The translations under genes were made by a program, and so were the position numbers. The notes under the pieces were generated by a model that worked only from the letters and a program-made list of their open reading frames with translations, was not told where the DNA came from and did not search any database. A DNA stretch of 64,000 bases from Lachnospiraceae bacterium (GTDB lineage: Bacteria > Bacillota > Clostridia > Lachnospirales > Lachnospiraceae): assembly GCA_045616465.1 (NCBI GenBank), contig JAZLGW010000016.1, positions 14,900-78,899 on the forward strand, read 5' to 3'. Positions within the stretch are counted from its first letter, which is position 1; each line of letters starts with the position of its first letter. Positions 1 through 28,998 of the stretch are shown in pieces.

Positions 1-471
1 TTTTTCCCCGGGTGAAAGAGGTTTTGGCATGTTGTAGTAGGAGGGTTCCCCATTACAAAACACATTTATCTCATTAAAAACAGTTGTATCATTTACTCTG
101 TCTATTTCAGTTGTTAACTGACTTACTTCTTCTTGAAGATAGCTTCTGTCTGTGTCACTGTTTGTATCGTTGGATGCCTGAATAGCCAGAACTTTCATAC
201 GATTCAAGATATCGTGTACTTCGCCACATGCACCATCTGCAATCTGACAAAAAGAAATACCATCCATTGCATTTTCTGAGGCCCTGGTAAGACCTTTGAT
301 TTGACGACGCATTTTTTCTGAAATTGCAAGACCCGCCGCGTTATCTGCTGCACGATTGATTTTATAACCTGAACTTAATTTTTCTGTGTTTTTCGCAAGA
401 CCCACATCGACAATGCCAAGATATCTGCTTGCATTCATCGCCTGCATGTTTGCTTTAACTACCATACCCAT
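1..471 (-). CDS. fliC: flagellin, N-terminal portion only (C-terminus lies beyond the left window edge)
   Basis: Absent from the ORF track because it is truncated by the edge. Own minus-strand translation from ATG 471 (alt. 465): MGMVVKANMQAMNASRYLG..KLSSGYKINRAADNAAGLAISEKMRRQIKGLTRASENAMDGIS..LNRMKVLAIQASNDTNSDTDRSYLQEEVSQLTTEIDRV, the conserved flagellin N-terminal D0/D1 signature. Confidence 0.85.
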   Translation of the reverse strand, partial: MGMVVKANMQAMNASRYLGIVDVGLAKNTEKLSSGYKINRAADNAAGLAISEKMRRQIKGLTRASENAMDGISFCQIADGACGEVHDILNRMKVLAIQASNDTNSDTDRSYLQEEVSQLTTEIDRVNDTTVFNEINVFCNGEPSYYNMPKPLSPGEK

Positions 472-481
472 AATATTGTTT

Positions 482-751
482 CTAGTCCCAAAGTCCGTTT
501 GGAGTAAAGGTTATCTTCTGGTGACAAAGGGGGCATATTTCTACAGTCGTCCCCTTCGTTTCTTCGTAAATTAGTTGCATTGGCGCATGACAATCATCGC
601 AAATTGCCGTTCTACTTCTAGAAAACTTTTTGCAATGATCACAAAAGAAAAGCTTTACCCCTTCCTTTTGATTAAAATCTCGCCTGCCAAAACCGAGATA
701 ATAATCCCGGTCTTTTTGGCAGGCACAATTTACTTGAATAATTTTACCCAT
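482..751 (-). CDS. small Cys-rich zinc-ribbon-like protein, function unknown; first gene of the flagellin transcription unit
   Basis: 89-aa ORF with an AGAGGG Shine-Dalgarno about 6 nt upstream. Eight Cys in paired motifs (C9xC11, C37xxC40, C51xxC54, C73xxC76). Its stop codon is 10 nt before the flagellin ATG. Confidence 0.6.
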   Translation of the reverse strand: MGKIIQVNCACQKDRDYYLGFGRRDFNQKEGVKLFFCDHCKKFSRSRTAICDDCHAPMQLIYEETKGTTVEICPLCHQKITFTPNGLWD

Positions 752-784
752 TGTTACCCTCTTAAAAACTTCCTATATTAAAAC

Positions 785-812
785 ATATCGGTTATGAAAA
801 CGTTTTACTTTA
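785..812 (-). promoter_or_regulatory. sigma-28 (SigD/FliA)-type promoter candidate
   Basis: Minus strand reads TAAA-N16-ACCGATAT, close to the flagellar sigma consensus TAAA-N15-GCCGATAA/T. It lies about 35 nt upstream of ORF 482..751. Confidence 0.5.
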
Positions 813-857
813 ATTTGTACTGCAATGGCCAGTGGAAGAAATGTAGGGAAAACAAAA

Positions 858-895
858 TAACACTATAATCGCACGAAATATAAAAATAGTGTTAT
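858..895. promoter_or_regulatory. 9-bp inverted repeat (TAACACTAT-N20-ATAGTGTTA) overlapping two -10-like hexamers; candidate operator upstream of the kinase gene
   Basis: Read directly: arms at 858..866 and 887..895; TATAAT at 864..869 and TATACT at 894..899. Confidence 0.35.
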
Positions 896-917
896 ACTAG
901 CATGAGAGGTGAAAAAC

Positions 918-1667
918 ATGTTCTCAGAGCTAGTAACAAATGACTATAAGATGCAGATGTCTGGAACCAGTGAAGGGAGTCAGGAAAAGTACTACAAAGA
1001 TGGATACTGGTATAAAGAAAATAAACATGGCGATGAAGCGAGGGCAGAGTATCTTTCGTCTAGATTATTGACGTTTTCTTCGTTGCAACCATCCGAGTAT
1101 ATTTTGTATGAGATGGGAACAATTAACGGAAAAAAAGGATGTAGGAGTAAAAATTTCCTTGGAGAAGAAGAGGAGCTAATTACATTTTACAGGCTATATT
1201 TTAACGAGACGGGAGAAGATCTTTCGAAAAAATATATGGGATACGGTTCAGCAGAAGAACGTATCGCTTTTACAATAGATGAAATGAAGCGAATTACGGG
1301 TTTAGATGTATGCGATTATTTACGAAAGATAATTACATTAGACCGTATTATTCTAAATGAGGATAGACATGTAAATAATTTGGCACTTGTATATGGAGAG
1401 AAAGGCTTTCGACCGGCGCCAATTTTTGATAATGGGATTTCTCTGCTTACGGCGAATCGAAGCGTGTCTATGCAAACACCTATGAAAGATAATGTAAGGA
1501 AGGTTGTGGCGCGACCATTTTCTGGCGACTTTGAGAAAATGTATTCTTGCTTGGGGAAGGGATTTGAACTAAATACAGAAGATGCGATTGCGTGGCTTCA
1601 AACAGAAGGGATGTCCTTTGAACGAGAAGTGTTACTTTATCAGTTAAAGCATTTGGAGGGGGTTTGA
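918..1667 (+). CDS. HipA-like Ser/Thr kinase, C-terminal kinase core only (HipT-like, lacks the HipA N-terminal subdomain)
   Basis: Motifs SGTSEGSQEK (Gly-rich loop), LNEDRHVNNLALV (catalytic loop) and IFDNG (Mg-binding Asp). ATG 918 is preferred over the ORF-track GTG 909 because a GAGAGGTG SD precedes it. Paralogous to 27799..28998. Confidence 0.75.
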   Translation: MFSELVTNDYKMQMSGTSEGSQEKYYKDGYWYKENKHGDEARAEYLSSRLLTFSSLQPSEYILYEMGTINGKKGCRSKNFLGEEEELITFYRLYFNETGEDLSKKYMGYGSAEERIAFTIDEMKRITGLDVCDYLRKIITLDRIILNEDRHVNNLALVYGEKGFRPAPIFDNGISLLTANRSVSMQTPMKDNVRKVVARPFSGDFEKMYSCLGKGFELNTEDAIAWLQTEGMSFEREVLLYQLKHLEGV

Positions 1668-2362
1668 TGGAAAACTGTCGGGAACTATATTATTTTTTTC
1701 TGATGAAGATAGCGGAGATAGAACAAAGTCTTCAAGGAATAGAAAAAGAATTGCAGGAACTGGATTCGCAGATAACTTATACCAATATTTTTATAAAGAA
1801 TATTCAAGGGAGATTGTACTACTATGGGCAGTGGTACGAAGGTAAAAGGTTAGTGAATAAATCTTTGGGGAGAGTTAGTCCAGGAAGTATTGCGGATATG
1901 GAAATGAAAATTGAGCGCTATCAGGAACTAAAGGAAGCAAAGGAAGAAAAAGAAGAGTTGCTACGATTTGTGCAGAAGAGTCTAGAGCGGTTGAAACGCC
2001 AGAAAGAGAATGTTAAAAAAGCAGACGAGAATTACACGTTTGAAGTGTATTGGAAGAATGAGATTGCTTCGAGAGTATATGTGCGAGGAGAAGAAATTAG
2101 AGTCACAAGGTTAATTAAGCATCCTGTTAAACAAATCTTTGCGAAGGATAAGATGACCAGGCATCAGCTCAATACGATTTTTCTTTCGCGGTGCTGGGAC
2201 CCCGATAGGCGGGATAGCGATTTGCTGTTGAAAGGTTTAGGATTGGAAACTTTTAATCCCAGAGAAATTGTAAGAAGAACACATGGTGTTATGTATAACG
2301 ATTTTATTTGGTTTCGTTTCCCGGGAGAGAACTTGCGGGCGGAAGATGTGCTTTGCCGTTAG
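1667..2362 (+). CDS. coiled-coil protein with a C-terminal HipA-N-terminal-like (HipS-like) module; putative partner/antitoxin of the upstream kinase
   Basis: ATG overlaps the kinase stop (TGATG) and follows GGAGGGGG. The N-terminal ~120 aa is heptad-like and Glu/Lys-rich. The C-terminal ~110 aa (FLSRCWDPDRRDSDLLLKGLGLETFNPREIVRRTHGVMYNDFIWFRFPGENLRAEDV) aligns by eye with the N-terminus of the 399-aa HipA-like protein at 27799. Confidence 0.6.
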   Translation: MENCRELYYFFLMKIAEIEQSLQGIEKELQELDSQITYTNIFIKNIQGRLYYYGQWYEGKRLVNKSLGRVSPGSIADMEMKIERYQELKEAKEEKEELLRFVQKSLERLKRQKENVKKADENYTFEVYWKNEIASRVYVRGEEIRVTRLIKHPVKQIFAKDKMTRHQLNTIFLSRCWDPDRRDSDLLLKGLGLETFNPREIVRRTHGVMYNDFIWFRFPGENLRAEDVLCR

Positions 2363-2380
2363 GAAGACCTCGCTTCCCCT

Positions 2381-2791
2381 TTATATCACAATTTCCCTAA
2401 GTGCATAATATTCTAATGTGGCTTTGCACACCAGAATGTTTTCGGAAGTGTAAAAATTGACTTCATAGGTAAGGAGAGAGCGTCCTGCTTTCAGCTCCAC
2501 TGTTTCGACGAGTAAATCTTTCTCTGCTGGTGCTCCATTTAAGTAGTGGATATGACCGGTAGAAGTTGTAACATACTTTCCATACGTCATGGCAGCGGTA
2601 CCAGCAACCGTATCGGCTACGGCATAGTAGAGTCCGCCGTGCACAGTGCCAAATGGATTGGCGATTTCTTTTGAACCTTTTAGGAGGGCTTTCACATATC
2701 CTTCCTTTATTTCAAGAATTTCAATCGGGAGATGCCCGATAAAGCCAACGGGCTGTTCAATATTCTTTTTCAAATATTCCAATAGTTCCAT
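2381..2791 (-). CDS. PaaI-family hotdog-fold thioesterase
   Basis: 136 aa; NPFGTVHGGLYYAVADTVAGTAA motif typical of PaaI/4HBT thioesterases. Confidence 0.8.
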   Translation of the reverse strand: MELLEYLKKNIEQPVGFIGHLPIEILEIKEGYVKALLKGSKEIANPFGTVHGGLYYAVADTVAGTAAMTYGKYVTTSTGHIHYLNGAPAEKDLLVETVELKAGRSLLTYEVNFYTSENILVCKATLEYYALREIVI

Positions 2792-2805
2792 AAGCTATAT
2801 TTACA

Positions 2806-3681
2806 TTATATTTCCCATCTTCCGCTGGCACCGCAGGGAAGAACATAATCTGAATTCTTTATAGGGAGTCCGATTTCTTCACTGTGGACCTGCCCACCGT
2901 GCTTCTCTTCAACTGCTTTCTTAATCATATAGGTAAGAACGCCAGGCTGCAGCCCGGTTGTATAGGAATTAACCAGGAAGAACAGGGGCTGGTCACTTAA
3001 TAGCTCGGCAGCGGAGGAGATGAGGGGGAAGACACAGTCTTCTAATTTCCAAATTTCGCCCTTGGGTCCTCGTCCATAGGAGGGTGGATCCATAATGATG
3101 CCGTCATAGTGGTTACCTCTGCGAATTTCGCGGTCGATGAACTTTTGGCAGTCATCCACGAGCCATCGGCAGCTGGTTTCAGGAATTCCAGAACTGATAG
3201 CATTTTCCTTGGCCCACTGTACCATACCTTTGGAAGCATCAACATGCGTTACATGTGCACCAGCAGCGGCAGCAGAAACGGTGGCACCCCCGGTATAAGC
3301 GAAAAGGTTTAATACCTTCACGTCTTTTCTGCCGGAATTCTTGATTTTGTTATAAAACCAGTCCCAGTTCGTCGCCTGTTCGGGAAACAGGCCTGTATGC
3401 TTAAAGGAAAATGGCTTCAAATGGAAGGTTAGTGTATCGCCGGGAAGGTCATAATGAATGGTCCACTCCTTGGGGAGGTCACGAAATTCCCATTCGCCAC
3501 CGCCTTTGCTGGAACGATGATAATGTCCATTCCATTTTCTCCAGCCGGGATGCTCCTTGGGTGTATTCCAGATTACCTGAGGGTCTGGGCGAAGCAGGGT
3601 ATACTTACCCCAGTTCTCGAGCTTTTCTCCTTCGGAGGTATCTAGTATTTCATAATCTTTCCAATTATTAGCGACCCACAT
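2806..3681 (-). CDS. class I SAM-dependent methyltransferase (RlmI/RlmK-like rRNA methyltransferase catalytic domain, no PUA domain)
   Basis: 291 aa; VLNLFAYTGGATVSAAAAGA (SAM motif I) and IIMDPPSYGRG (motif IV DPP). Confidence 0.8.
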   Translation of the reverse strand: MWVANNWKDYEILDTSEGEKLENWGKYTLLRPDPQVIWNTPKEHPGWRKWNGHYHRSSKGGGEWEFRDLPKEWTIHYDLPGDTLTFHLKPFSFKHTGLFPEQATNWDWFYNKIKNSGRKDVKVLNLFAYTGGATVSAAAAGAHVTHVDASKGMVQWAKENAISSGIPETSCRWLVDDCQKFIDREIRRGNHYDGIIMDPPSYGRGPKGEIWKLEDCVFPLISSAAELLSDQPLFFLVNSYTTGLQPGVLTYMIKKAVEEKHGGQVHSEEIGLPIKNSDYVLPCGASGRWEI

Positions 3682-3750
3682 AGTATTTCTCTTTCTATTC
3701 TTAATTAAAATATTTTTTACATATTAAAGCAGATTGGATTATCGGTATAA

Positions 3751-3773
3751 GGACAAAGCATTCCTTTCTGTCC
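3751..3773. repeat. hairpin-forming repeat copy A (ggacaaagcattcctttctgtcc)
   Basis: Near-identical to the reverse complement of 3939..3960. Confidence 0.6.
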
Positions 3774-3938
3774 TTTGTGTAGGAGCATTACAGCCTCTTA
3801 TTGTTCTTTCTTATATAGTAGCAATTCCGGAACACGACGTTCCGGAAAGCCTGCACTGAGACAGGATGTCGAATTGCAGGCGGTTGCGTATCACACCGCA
3901 AACTTATGGAACAATTAGAGGGGTGTGCGACGGAACCT

Positions 3939-3960
3939 GGACAGAAGGGAATCTTTGTCC
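3939..3960. repeat. hairpin-forming repeat copy B (inverted; reverse complement ggacaaagattcccttctgtcc)
   Basis: Inverted copy of 3751..3773, about 165 bp away. Confidence 0.6.
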
Positions 3961-4006
3961 TATAAAAAACAGTTTCTTCTATATATATGTATTATGTAAA
4001 CTGACC

Positions 4007-4035
4007 TTGCATATCCGACTACATTATAATATAAT
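4007..4035 (+). promoter_or_regulatory. sigma-A promoter P1 of the S10 cluster
   Basis: TTGCAT-17 nt-TATAAT read directly. Confidence 0.5.
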
Positions 4036-4148
4036 CCCTTTGTCAGCACAATTCCCCAAGAATTTGTGGTCTGTGGTCTATATTTTGTGGATTTCGCCTT
4101 TTCGACGAAAATTTATGAAAAATTTTGTCAAAATTTTCAAAAAAGTTC

Positions 4149-4176
4149 TTGCAATTAAAAAATCCCGTGTTATAAT
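4149..4176 (+). promoter_or_regulatory. sigma-A promoter P2 of the S10 cluster, with extended -10 and an upstream A/T-tract UP-like element
   Basis: TTGCAA-16 nt-(TGT)TATAAT. Phased A-tracts (aaaatttatgaaaaattttgtcaaaattttcaaaaaa) lie immediately upstream. Confidence 0.6.
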
Positions 4177-4441
4177 GGCTATTGCTGTGGCATGATAGCG
4201 ATGAAGCGTGAGGTTGCTATGAGTGCGAAAGTGCTTATAGGTTTTCCGTGGAGCGAATGTCAATGCGGAGTCTGTGATCCGCAACAAATTTGACGACAAG
4301 TCACTGTACGAACCGTCTGCAAAGGCAGAAACGACGTGTAAAACTAAATGTGAGTTTAGGACACACACGGGTAAGTGTACAGTCACCAGCTTGTCGTACT
4401 TAGAGAAAAATTAAAAGTACGAAAAGGAGGCGACTTTTTTT

Positions 4442-4756
4442 ATGGCAAATCAGGCAAGAATGAGAGTCACATTAAAAGCGTATGATCATCAGTTAATTGA
4501 TGCATCAGCAAAGAAGATTATCGAAACAGTTAAGAAGAACGGTGGAGAGGTTTCCGGACCAGTTCCCCTGCCTACTAAGAAAGAGGTAGTTACCATTCTT
4601 CGTGCAGTACACAAGTACAAGGATTCCAGAGAACAGTTCGAGCAGAGAACTCACAAGAGACTCATCGACATCATGAATCCTTCCCAGAAGGTTGTTGAAT
4701 CCCTTCAGAAGATGGATATGCCTGCTGGTGTAAGTTTCGACGTTAAGATGAAATAA
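4442..4756 (+). CDS. rpsJ: 30S ribosomal protein S10
   Basis: 104 aa; [14 protein letters not shown]10 signature; AAGGAGG SD; first gene of the conserved S10 operon order. Confidence 0.97.
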
Positions 4757-27334: not shown

Positions 27335-27390
27335 ATGTAACCAAATAGGATACAATAATAAAGTGGATAACCAAATTGGGCACATTGAAT

Positions 27391-27795
27391 ATGAGTTATA
27401 TTATCAAAGAATTAAGAGAAAAAACAGGAATGACACAAAAAGAGTTTGCAGAGAAGTTTGCAATTCCAGTTAGTACATTGCGAAAGTGGGAACAGGGAGA
27501 GGCAACACCGGCCTCATACGTAATCAGTCTGATAGCAATGCAGTTGCCAGATGTGGAAATGACCACAGAGGTTATCGAAACAGCAGATGGACTGAAGTTT
27601 TATTATGATAGACTTCGAAAAATGATTTCAGATTCGAAAGGGAATAAGATTCCTATTCATGAGGATTTGAATGGGGTGAAACGTCACAATTTGAAACTGT
27701 ATGTGAGTGATTTATTTGATTCTTATTATGCGATATGTGAAAGATTCAATAATGATTGCAAAATTGATAAGCAGGAAGATGTCCTATGGGGGTAG
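27391..27795 (+). CDS. XRE-family helix-turn-helix protein (HipB-like antitoxin candidate) with a ~75-aa C-terminal extension
   Basis: IKELREKTGMTQKEFAEKFAIPVSTLRKWEQGEATP HTH; ATG 27391 preferred to the ORF-track TTG 27376. Lies 3 nt upstream of the kinase gene. Confidence 0.8.
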   Translation: MSYIIKELREKTGMTQKEFAEKFAIPVSTLRKWEQGEATPASYVISLIAMQLPDVEMTTEVIETADGLKFYYDRLRKMISDSKGNKIPIHEDLNGVKRHNLKLYVSDLFDSYYAICERFNNDCKIDKQEDVLWG

Positions 27796-27798
27796 TAT

Positions 27799-28998
27799 AT
27801 GCCAAGAAAGATTCCAAGAGAGTACTATCTAATGCATAAAGATATACCGGTTTGCATAATGGAGATATCAGAAGATGGTGTGTTAGGTTCCTATAGAAAA
27901 AATGAGATGCAGCGTAATCATTTTCCGATTGGTGGACAAATGAACGATATGAAGTTTCATGATTGGTGGAGGGACAGAGCAATTCCTAAAACTAGACATG
28001 GAGCGAAAAGTGCGCTACAAAGATTGGGATATGAATCTACCAACAGTGCTTTGGTAGATAATCTTGCGCTTAGCTTATCGGACTGTTACTGGATTAAACC
28101 GCGAGGCGAAGAGTTATCCTGGAAGGATGTTAATTTATTTACAAATGACTTTGTAGATACATTTGGGGATTTGACGATTAACCGAGACAGCATAATTGAT
28201 ATAAGAAATAAAACAAGGTTCAATTGTGCAGCAGCGCAAGGAGAATTGCAGAAAAAATGGTGTATTGATAGTTCGGGAAAAAGATACATGGTTAAAGGCA
28301 ATTATGGAGAAAGCTATCAGCAAAGTTTGAACGAAATATTCGCAACGAATCTTCACAAAAGCCAAGGCTATGATAATTATACAGAATATACCCTAACCCA
28401 TCTTATGATTGAGGGAGATATTGAAGGGATAGGGTGTTTATCGTATGATTTTTGCAGTGAAGACGTTGAGAGTATTAGTGCTTGGGAAGTACTACAAACC
28501 GTAAAGATAAAACAAAATGAATCCCTGTATTTTCCCTTTAAACGCGCATTACTTGCTCTTGGTATGTCAGAACAAGATTTTAATGAATTTATGGACTATC
28601 AGATTGTAACGGATTTTTTGATTTCAAATACAGATAGACATATGAATAATATAGCGATAGTTAGGAATCCTGATACGCTGGAATTACTAGGGTTTGCTCC
28701 AATTTATGATTCTGGTAATTCAATGTTTTATAATATACCTTTTGATCAGTTGGATGTGATTCATCTTGACGCGCTCCGTACGCATTCTTTTGTTGAGAAA
28801 GAAATTAAGCTTCTATCCTATGTTCAAAACAGAAATTGTGTTGATTTGGGAAAGGCGGATATAGTGTTCTCTATTTATGATGCTGATGTGTATGAACGAC
28901 GAATTCGAAGGGAAAAACTTCATGAAATGTATAAACGAAAATTAAATATGATTGAATCCTTTCAAAATGGAAAAGATATATGGAAGAGTAGGTACTAG
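27799..28998 (+). CDS. full-length HipA-like Ser/Thr kinase (toxin candidate)
   Basis: 399 aa; AAAQGELQKK loop, ISNTDRHMNNIAIV catalytic loop, APIYDSGNS. The N-terminal ~110 aa resembles the HipA N-terminal subdomain. Confidence 0.8.
   Translation: MPRKIPREYYLMHKDIPVCIMEISEDGVLGSYRKNEMQRNHFPIGGQMNDMKFHDWWRDRAIPKTRHGAKSALQRLGYESTNSALVDNLALSLSDCYWIKPRGEELSWKDVNLFTNDFVDTFGDLTINRDSIIDIRNKTRFNCAAAQGELQKKWCIDSSGKRYMVKGNYGESYQQSLNEIFATNLHKSQGYDNYTEYTLTHLMIEGDIEGIGCLSYDFCSEDVESISAWEVLQTVKIKQNESLYFPFKRALLALGMSEQDFNEFMDYQIVTDFLISNTDRHMNNIAIVRNPDTLELLGFAPIYDSGNSMFYNIPFDQLDVIHLDALRTHSFVEKEIKLLSYVQNRNCVDLGKADIVFSIYDADVYERRIRREKLHEMYKRKLNMIESFQNGKDIWKSRY

Follow-up and report, generated by a model that had tools for sequence, protein, structure and literature searches.

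Split-HipA kinases are known from a few characterised cases, the HipBST systems of Escherichia coli and Legionella, and from a bioinformatic catalogue in which Proteobacteria predominate. In E. coli HipBST, HipS sits at the site of HipA N-subdomain 1, and its Trp65, wedged in the pocket of the ejected Gly-rich loop, blocks the kinase HipT (PMC10627512). Legionella HipBST lacks this tryptophan and still neutralises its kinase (PMC10653801). Gerdes, Baerentsen and Brodersen (2021, mBio) described modules in which a core kinase gene is followed by a HipS or HipS-HIRAN gene without HipB (hipJS and hipIN), as well as hipL, a kinase-HipS-HIRAN fusion (PMC8262856). HipT and the short clade-XI kinases of that study likewise lack N-subdomain 1 (PMC8262856). 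Here, we analyse a two-gene locus in a stretch of 64,000 nucleotides (nt) from a Lachnospiraceae bacterium (contig JAZLGW010000016.1, assembly GCA_045616465.1), referred to below as the window. Its open reading frame (ORF) A encodes a HipT-like kinase core of 249 amino acids (aa), and its ORF B encodes a 231-aa partner that ends in a HipS-like domain. Together with an operator-like inverted repeat, they occupy positions 857-2366, which on balance we take to be a split-HipA module of the HipS/HipT kind, self-contained in two genes.

ORF A has the fold and the motifs of a HipA-type kinase. Its AlphaFold2 (AF2) model has a predicted local distance difference test score (pLDDT) of 90.2 and a predicted template modelling (pTM) score of 0.89. 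Foldseek matches this model to CtkA (E 5e-8, TMq 0.64), to HipT of Legionella pneumophila, or HipT(Lp) (1e-6), and to the HipA chains of S. oneidensis (3e-5) and E. coli (5e-4), which places A in the HipA-type kinase fold. A profile of 41 homologues, searched against PDB sequences, reaches HipT(Lp) at E 5e-4 and CtkA at E 6e-3. The motifs GTSEGSQEK, DRHVNN, and FDNG are invariant in the 41-sequence family alignment. LNEDRHVNN has counterparts in NTDRHMNN of a 399-aa HipA-like paralogue elsewhere in the window and in NEDMHLKN of HipT(Lp), and IFDNG corresponds to IYDSG in the paralogue. By analogy with HipA Ser150 and HipT Ser57/59 (PMC10627512), Ser18 is a candidate autophosphorylation site; more generally, Ser18 or Thr17, beside the Gly-rich loop, may be phosphorylated in this way. 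Because the Gly-rich loop starts at residue 15, the ~110-residue HipA N-subdomain 1 is absent from A.

The similarity between A and the paralogue is significant in a pairwise BLASTP alignment (A 59-177 with paralogue 195-310, E 4e-7) and in a profile-profile alignment (A 66-244 with paralogue 205-370, probability 94.7, E 5.9e-8). An earlier reading of the letters and translations, here called the original prediction, had taken A for the HipA kinase core only. The invariant motifs, the HipT(Lp) profile match, and the Foldseek results bear this out. Its alignment of A to the paralogue is statistically supported over ~160-180 residues, but not over the span it gave, residues 115-330, since the Gly-rich-loop region remains unaligned.

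The subdomain that A lacks is found in the C-terminal domain of B. Pairwise BLASTP of B against the paralogue was not significant (E 0.38), and profile-profile comparison was therefore needed. With hhalign, a C-domain profile of 27 sequences aligns with a paralogue-family profile of 25 sequences over 102 columns (probability 88.8, E 2.5e-6). The register places C-domain columns 10-113 on paralogue residues 12-114, the expected N-terminal position. When the C-domain profile was searched against 1.84 billion representative proteins at E <= 1e-3, it matched 884 proteins, mostly stand-alone and 105-135 aa long. Three of these are fused forms of 376-384 aa (P0326, P0393, and P0417) that carry the domain at residues ~3-110 (E 1.6e-35 to 3e-18), and all three match HipA_C weakly. 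The remainder of P0326 is 41% identical to the ORF-A family (hhalign probability 100, E 2e-66). The existence of these fused kinases in the same lineage indicates that the C-domain of B and the whole of A are the split form of a full-length kinase.

Structure points the same way. The AF2 model of B (pLDDT 90.2) superposes on HipS of E. coli HipBST (7ab3_E) over 104 columns with a template modelling (TM) score of 0.65 normalised to HipS, a root-mean-square deviation of 3.5 Å, and a probability of 0.91; Foldseek with full-length B returned nothing at E <= 1e-3, and the HipS match is based on TM-score and probability. Searches of B against PDB chains with the single sequence, the full-family profile, and the C-domain profile gave no HipS or HipA, only coiled-coil noise and a chance Pth match, and the paralogue-family profile gave nothing against PDB at E <= 1. 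The link to canonical HipS is thus structural and architectural rather than by sequence. The original prediction held that the C-terminal ~110 aa of B are the missing HipA N-subdomain and staked this on profile or structural similarity to HipA N-terminal or HipS domains. That similarity is present, in the hhalign match, the fused kinases, the HipS fold, and synteny. We hold the homology-level statements on A and B with high confidence.

The two genes belong together throughout their family. The kinase alignment was scanned against one genome per GTDB species (~185,579 genomes), which identified a relative in at least 352 species genomes, mostly Lachnospiraceae and other Clostridia, many of them from gut or rumen. 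Each of the best 80 loci, which were kept for analysis, has a partner with a HipS-like domain beside the kinase on the same strand. In 78 of the 80 the partner lies upstream, an order colinear with HipA and with hipS-hipT; the two genes usually overlap by 4-8 nt or lie less than 10 nt apart. Only L007 and L014 are kinase-first. L007 is a horse-faeces Lachnospiraceae metagenome-assembled genome (MAG) that is syntenic with the window; its two ORFs are intact, their proteins are 84-85% identical to those of the window, and the window and L007 together sit on a long branch. The nearest relatives of L014 are partner-first, which implies that the flip arose at least twice within this one toxin-antitoxin family. 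In the converse scan, of the partner alignment against metagenome contigs, 53 loci have the partner followed by a full kinase and none is kinase-first; the partner-then-kinase order holds in all 71 loci that are scorable for it. The kinase-first order of the window is a rare derived permutation of a canonical-order family. The original prediction had treated reversed order as a defining trait, which this survey does not support; the co-occurrence that it anticipated holds at 80 of 80 kinase loci. Neighbourhoods differ from one species to the next, and the module is present three times in one MAG: loci L060, L067, and L073 are separate copies with a helix-turn-helix (HTH) head in a single Erysipelotrichaceae genome bin.

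The layout and distribution are those of a type II toxin-antitoxin pair. The genes are small, adjacent, co-oriented, and coupled, with stop and start overlapping in TGATG; they occur together in 80/80 loci, are patchily distributed (352/~185,579), and stand in variable contexts. None of the 80 loci has a kinase without a partner. Partners without a full kinase account for 20 of the 73 scorable metagenome loci, in addition to the 53 with a full kinase: in 16 an internal remnant is all that is left of the kinase, and 4 have no kinase although their contigs leave space for one on either side; these counts include the same gut species repeatedly and are not independent. Intact partners lacking a kinase are seen in L001-L004, and in L005 and L006 an intact partner is followed by a kinase remnant that lacks the Gly-rich-loop half. 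In the surveyed loci, then, the putative antitoxin persists without the toxin and the reverse is not seen, which is the direction predicted for an antidote/poison pair. We consider it likely that A and B are related as toxin and antitoxin.

Two side observations concern the decayed loci. In L005/L006 (5668-6111), the kinase consists of the C-terminal 147 aa directly 3' of the intact partner; this arrangement is seen on many contigs, and its partner protein is listed in 183 blocks of the collection. In L001 (5001-6879; also L002-L004), an orphan B homologue with no kinase near it lies 146-180 nt 5', on the same strand, of a gene for a 347-aa TrpS-like class-Ib tRNA synthetase (PF00579). E. coli HipT is known to target TrpS. 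This proximity occurs in one lineage only and may be a coincidence.

By analogy with HipA and HipT, A would be a growth-arresting toxin that phosphorylates a translation factor. The HipS-like domain of B most likely docks on A and keeps it inactive, and would clamp A in the same general way as HipS clamps HipT. The C-domain alignment has an invariant Trp, W97. The same domain could instead be an obligatory subunit that completes the kinase, with an active A-B complex regulated transcriptionally or by an external signal acting through the N-terminal module of B. The strict co-occurrence of kinase and partner would suit such a subunit, as would the covalent attachment of the domain in the fused ~380-aa kinases and the fact that N-subdomain 1 is integral to active HipA (PMC8262856). 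However, partners persist intact beside truncated or missing kinases and the kinase is never alone, an asymmetry expected of an antidote and not of a mere subunit. The detached domain is also the antitoxin in both characterised split systems, those of E. coli and Legionella (PMC10627512, PMC10653801). We therefore regard a subunit role as unlikely and retain B as a putative inhibitor of A.

The remaining part of B is its N-terminal 119 residues. The original prediction described them as coiled-coil-like, but the AF2 model shows a helix (residues 2-35), three beta strands (40-69), and a second helix (76-119). The sheet carries the motif IKxIxGxxYYYxQW...LGxVxPG, in which K44, I46, Y51-Y53, Q55, P72, and G73 are invariant across the family. 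Pfam and NCBIfam searches with B give weak coiled-coil families only and no HIRAN match. Foldseek matches the module weakly (E 0.07-1.1) to prefoldin and, in its sheet, to P4-like integrase arm-type DNA-binding domains, which we treat as a lead only. In precomputed tables, B homologues carry the label PF20586 (DUF6788), which was not reproduced with Pfam-A even at E <= 10, and a literature search for DUF6788 found no papers.

Comparison of the 80 loci shows that this module is one of several heads placed before the same domain. The partners take three forms, all with the HipS-like domain. Type i, the form of the window, is ~225-250 aa long; type ii, of ~112-137 aa, is the HipS-like domain alone; and type iii, of ~185-200 aa, has an Xre HTH domain fused before the HipS-like domain, in effect a HipB-HipS fusion. 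HTH_3 was confirmed in the type iii-like proteins P0073 and P0329. Further architectures are seen in P0364 (344 aa), P0384 (272 aa), and P0337 (263 aa), which have a C-terminal HipS-like domain behind long N-terminal parts that are low in complexity or contain an HTH and are blank in Pfam. A HipB-like gene 5' of the HipS-only type ii loci, which would make them true HipBST systems, was sought, and none was found.

Most type i loci carry an inverted repeat that would serve as an operator. In the window, its two perfect arms follow the core pattern TAACAY-N25-RTGTTA, and the relaxed pattern TAACAY-N16-30-RTGTTA occurs only once in the 64 kb. The pattern lies within 160 nt 5' of the first gene in 24 of 35 type i loci, rising to ~29 of 35 when up to 2 mismatches are allowed, and there is 1 occurrence in the remaining 327 kb of these loci. 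It is found at 0/11 type ii and 0/20 type iii loci (Fisher p 1e-9). Across loci the arms are conserved and the spacer sequence is variable. The spacer measures 25-27 nt, which sets the half-site centres 31-33 bp apart, ~three helical turns. Both arms co-vary, as in L024 (TAACCTAC/GTAGGTTA), L036 (TAACACAC/GTGTGTTA), and the window (TAACACTAT/ATAGTGTTA). The repeat stands before whichever gene is first, including in the kinase-first window, L007, and L014. Most related loci have a TTGAAA -35 element in the spacer and a -10-like hexamer that overlaps the right arm; the window also has a perfect TATAAT at 864-869, inside the left arm.

The head domain and the operator seem to change together. In several type iii loci, a compact palindrome, TAATAGCAT/ATGCTATTA with 0-4 nt between its arms, replaces the TAACAY repeat; in L068, L074, L079, and L082 it lies ~30-45 nt 5' of the HTH-HipS gene. 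One human-gut lineage, L120-L143, has TAACAY..RTGTTA inside the kinase gene, ~320 nt past its start (e.g., L125 position 1136), and its upstream region is cut by contig ends.

These data allow us to add a regulatory step to the proposed scheme. The N-module of B would form a dimer on the pair of TAACAY half-sites that bracket the promoter, and with half-sites so placed, B or a B-A complex would repress its own operon. The N-module probably replaces HipB as autorepressor, because it co-occurs with the inverted repeat and the sister clades, which have an Xre HTH or nothing in its place, lack the repeat. In this scheme it would take HipB's place in a lineage where the gene order has flipped to kinase then partner. 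Whether the module is a DNA-binding domain we judge an even call. A more specific proposal, which we put forward only tentatively, is that the helix/sheet/helix is an unrecognised dimeric DNA-binding domain that reads two TAACAY half-sites spaced by three helical turns across a promoter, with HipS as a portable kinase clamp on exchangeable heads. If this is true, the Lachnospiraceae series shows how HipS took over the function of HipB, so that two proteins work by the logic of the three-protein HipBST. Toxicity of A, neutralisation by B, and DNA binding by the N-module are, like a physiological role in phage defence, persistence, or addiction, properties that we infer from these comparisons.

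A different function for the N-module would be that of a sensor in an abortive-infection or phage-sensing system, freeing the kinase on infection instead of or besides acting as autorepressor. Gerdes et al. proposed a phage-triggered role for HipS-fusion antitoxins (PMC8262856), and the accessory domain of HipS is exchangeable here, being absent, an HTH, or a helix/sheet/helix. A also matches the PADLOC candidate defence component PDC-M03A (PDLC04340, E 1e-16), but the ordinary hipBA-type paralogue scores just as well against this model (E 6e-18), which hence is generic for HipA kinases, and B matches no PADLOC partner model. A profile scan of viral contigs found no relatives of the kinase family, the neighbours in the window are housekeeping genes and not a defence island, and the conserved operator already provides the N-module with a role. 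An abortive-infection or phage-sensing role therefore appears improbable.

The window module might also be a decaying or neutral remnant, its regulation broken by the flip in the window/L007 lineage and its genes no longer a working unit. The long branch of that pair, the absence from the window of the TTGAAA found in most relatives, and the frequency of kinase decay in the family would fit such a remnant. Yet both ORFs are intact and keep all family-invariant residues, stop and start still overlap, the ribosome-binding sites remain, and the operator arms are perfect. A conserved block, beginning exactly at the left operator arm (857) and running past the stop of B to 2366, is 80% identical in nucleotide sequence to L007, where both ORFs are also intact. 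A remnant is thus very unlikely, and we continue to treat the locus as a putatively functional split-HipA module.

Several points weigh against that reading. The Pfam HipA_C model (PF07804) does match A, with 21.3 bits and E 2e-4, but falls short of its gathering score of 30.5; a precomputed PF07804 label is present on some close homologues of A. Solved HipS and HipA chains are out of reach for sequence profiles of the C-domain, and the Foldseek E-value of B against HipS 7ab3_E is only 0.29. In full-length HipA, the homologous subdomain belongs to the active toxin, and homology alone consequently does not make the domain of B inhibitory. The repeated sampling of the same gut species lessens the weight of the decayed-kinase counts. 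For the regulatory step, the matches of the N-module to DNA-binding domain folds are weak (E 0.6-1.1), the -35 region of the window is poor and lacks the TTGAAA of most relatives, and the restriction of the operator to type i loci may partly reflect their shared ancestry.

The coordinates of the module and of the comparator genes are collected in Table 1. The start of A at ATG 918 follows GAGAGG by 8 nt, and its stop occupies 1665-1667. B begins with ATG 1667-1669, preceded by a GGAGG stretch within the 3' end of A, and stops at 2360-2362. The stop of A and the start of B share one base, an arrangement that suggests translational coupling. These reading frames and the overlap agree with the original prediction, as does the absence of an HTH or HipB gene next to the pair, on which the ORFs and Pfam matches around it in the window are also negative. 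The neighbours are a Cys-rich ORF of 89 aa at 482-751 (-) and, 3' of the pair, a 4HBT thioesterase gene at 2381-2791 (-) and an S-adenosylmethionine (SAM) methyltransferase gene at 2806-3681 (-), beyond which come a leader RNA and the S10 ribosomal-protein operon that it precedes.

Table 1. Features of the split-HipA module and comparator genes, in window positions.
Feature	Position	Strand	Basis
Operator-like inverted repeat, arms ATAACACTAT (857-866) and ATAGTGTTAT (886-895), 19 nt between	857..895	.	Perfect 10-nt arms
-10-like hexamer TATACT, overlapping right operator arm	893..898	+	Read from sequence; putative promoter assignment
ORF A, HipA-superfamily Ser/Thr kinase core, HipT-like, without N-subdomain 1, putative toxin	918..1667	+	Pfam, profile, AF2/Foldseek, PADLOC
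Gly-rich loop SGTSEGSQEK, residues 15-24	960..989	+	S18, G20, Q22, K24 invariant in 41 homologues
Catalytic motif LNEDRHVNN, residues 146-154	1353..1379	+	D149, R150, H151, N153, N154 invariant in 41 homologues
Mg-binding motif IFDNG, residues 169-173	1422..1436	+	F170, D171, G173 invariant in 41 homologues
ORF B, 231-aa partner, putative antitoxin/autorepressor	1667..2362	+	Overlaps stop of A; 73 homologues of ~230 aa
N-terminal module of B, residues 1-119, putative dimerising DNA-binding arm	1667..2023	+	AF2; operator co-occurrence; sister-clade position
HipS-like domain of B, residues 122-231, equivalent to HipA N-subdomain 1	2030..2359	+	hhalign, fused kinases, Foldseek
HipB-like Xre HTH protein, 139 aa, comparator	27376..27795	+	Pfam HTH_3, E 3e-10
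Full-length HipA-like kinase, 399 aa, comparator	27799..28998	+	Pfam HipA_C, E 2e-5; 1625 homologues, mostly ~400 aa

Two RNA elements were found beyond the methyltransferase gene. A TwoAYGGAY motif (Rfam RF01731) at 3775-3938 (+; 91.7 bits, E 9e-16) separates this gene from the S10 operon, and an S10-Clostridia ribosomal-protein leader (RF03136) at 4193-4299 (+; 67.5 bits) is directly 5' of rpsJ at 4442. A small-RNA antitoxin was considered and rejected, as an Rfam scan of 1-4500 gave no RNA family within 700-2500. A remnant partner gene 5' of A, or a second copy in the window, was likewise rejected on the basis of tblastn, which found none; the sole relative of A or B in the 64 kb is the 399-aa HipA-like protein. 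That protein belongs to a second Hip module of canonical hipBA layout, in which an Xre HTH gene is followed after 4 nt by the kinase gene. Beside the split-HipA module is a variable spot, at which the window (2367-2805) has the 4HBT thioesterase gene and L007 (6450-8513) has ~2 kb of unrelated sequence.

Among known systems, the best structural match to A is CtkA (JHP0940) of Helicobacter pylori, also a short HipA-like kinase, but the resemblance is at the level of fold only, with 15% identity. The PADLOC system PDC-M03 shares with the module only its component A; its model is generic, and B has no match to a PDC-M03 partner. Canonical hipBA of E. coli K-12 and S. oneidensis has a kinase of the same superfamily with the same motifs, and the C-domain of B followed by A is colinear with HipA. 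Autoregulation through a palindromic operator over the promoter may be a further likeness, being putative for the window module. The two differ in that hipBA uses the HTH protein HipB as antitoxin and keeps the N-subdomain within the kinase chain, whereas the window module encodes this subdomain in trans and has something other than an HTH as its presumed DNA-binding part.

HipBST of E. coli O127:H6 and L. pneumophila is, like the module, a split-HipA system. As in HipBST, the kinase is a core without N-subdomain 1, with its Gly-rich loop near the N-terminus, and the subdomain is encoded by the neighbouring gene, HipS corresponding to the C-domain of B. The usual order in the family, S-like then T-like, is also that of HipBST. 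In the window, however, this order is flipped: the kinase is followed by the partner, with no adjacent HTH ORF, in place of an upstream hipB and the order hipB-hipS-hipT. The subdomain is part of a larger protein and not a ~100-aa stand-alone HipS, being fused to a 120-aa helix/sheet/helix (an HTH or nothing in the sister clades), and its sequence similarity to solved HipS is undetectable. A is also shorter, at 249 aa versus 291-346 aa for HipT (PMC8262856).

The layout of the module is also that of hipJS and hipIN, bicistronic modules without HipB in which the gene for a short core kinase precedes that for a putative HipS-type antitoxin. The antitoxin of hipIN moreover joins its HipS-like domain to a putative DNA-binding domain. 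The original prediction saw in the window a bipartite variant without HipB and did not recognise the architecture as described. The split kinase, the fused HipS domain, and the missing HipB of that description stand; gene order and coiled coil as its traits do not, and neither does the claim of an undescribed architecture, hipJS, hipIN, and hipL having already been published (PMC8262856). Kinase then HipS-type gene without HipB is the arrangement of the window, L007, and L014 only, so that the kinase-first order that characterises hipJS and hipIN is exceptional in the window family. HipN has its HipS-like domain N-terminal and HIRAN C-terminal; in B, by contrast, the accessory module is N-terminal and has no HIRAN Pfam match, and the HipS-like domain ends the protein. 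The supplementary text examined for PMC8262856 contains no Lachnospiraceae or Clostridium entries.

Since systems of this kind and the kinase-first order have both been described, our findings refine this picture rather than alter it. What appears to be undescribed, as far as we found, is the helix/sheet/helix N-module with its matching operator, together with the sister HTH-HipS fusions. For an uncharacterised domain, this proposes a function that can be tested and a specific site on DNA. Within one kinase lineage, the HipS domain occurs in four states: as part of the kinase chain, on its own, behind an HTH, and behind a helix/sheet/helix that has its own operator. The lineage is thereby a natural experiment in how the functions of antitoxin and repressor can be divided. 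Set beside HipBST, hipJS, and hipIN, what appears to be new is a Clostridia-wide HipS/HipT-like family whose HipS bears exchangeable heads, one of them tied to a conserved bipartite operator.

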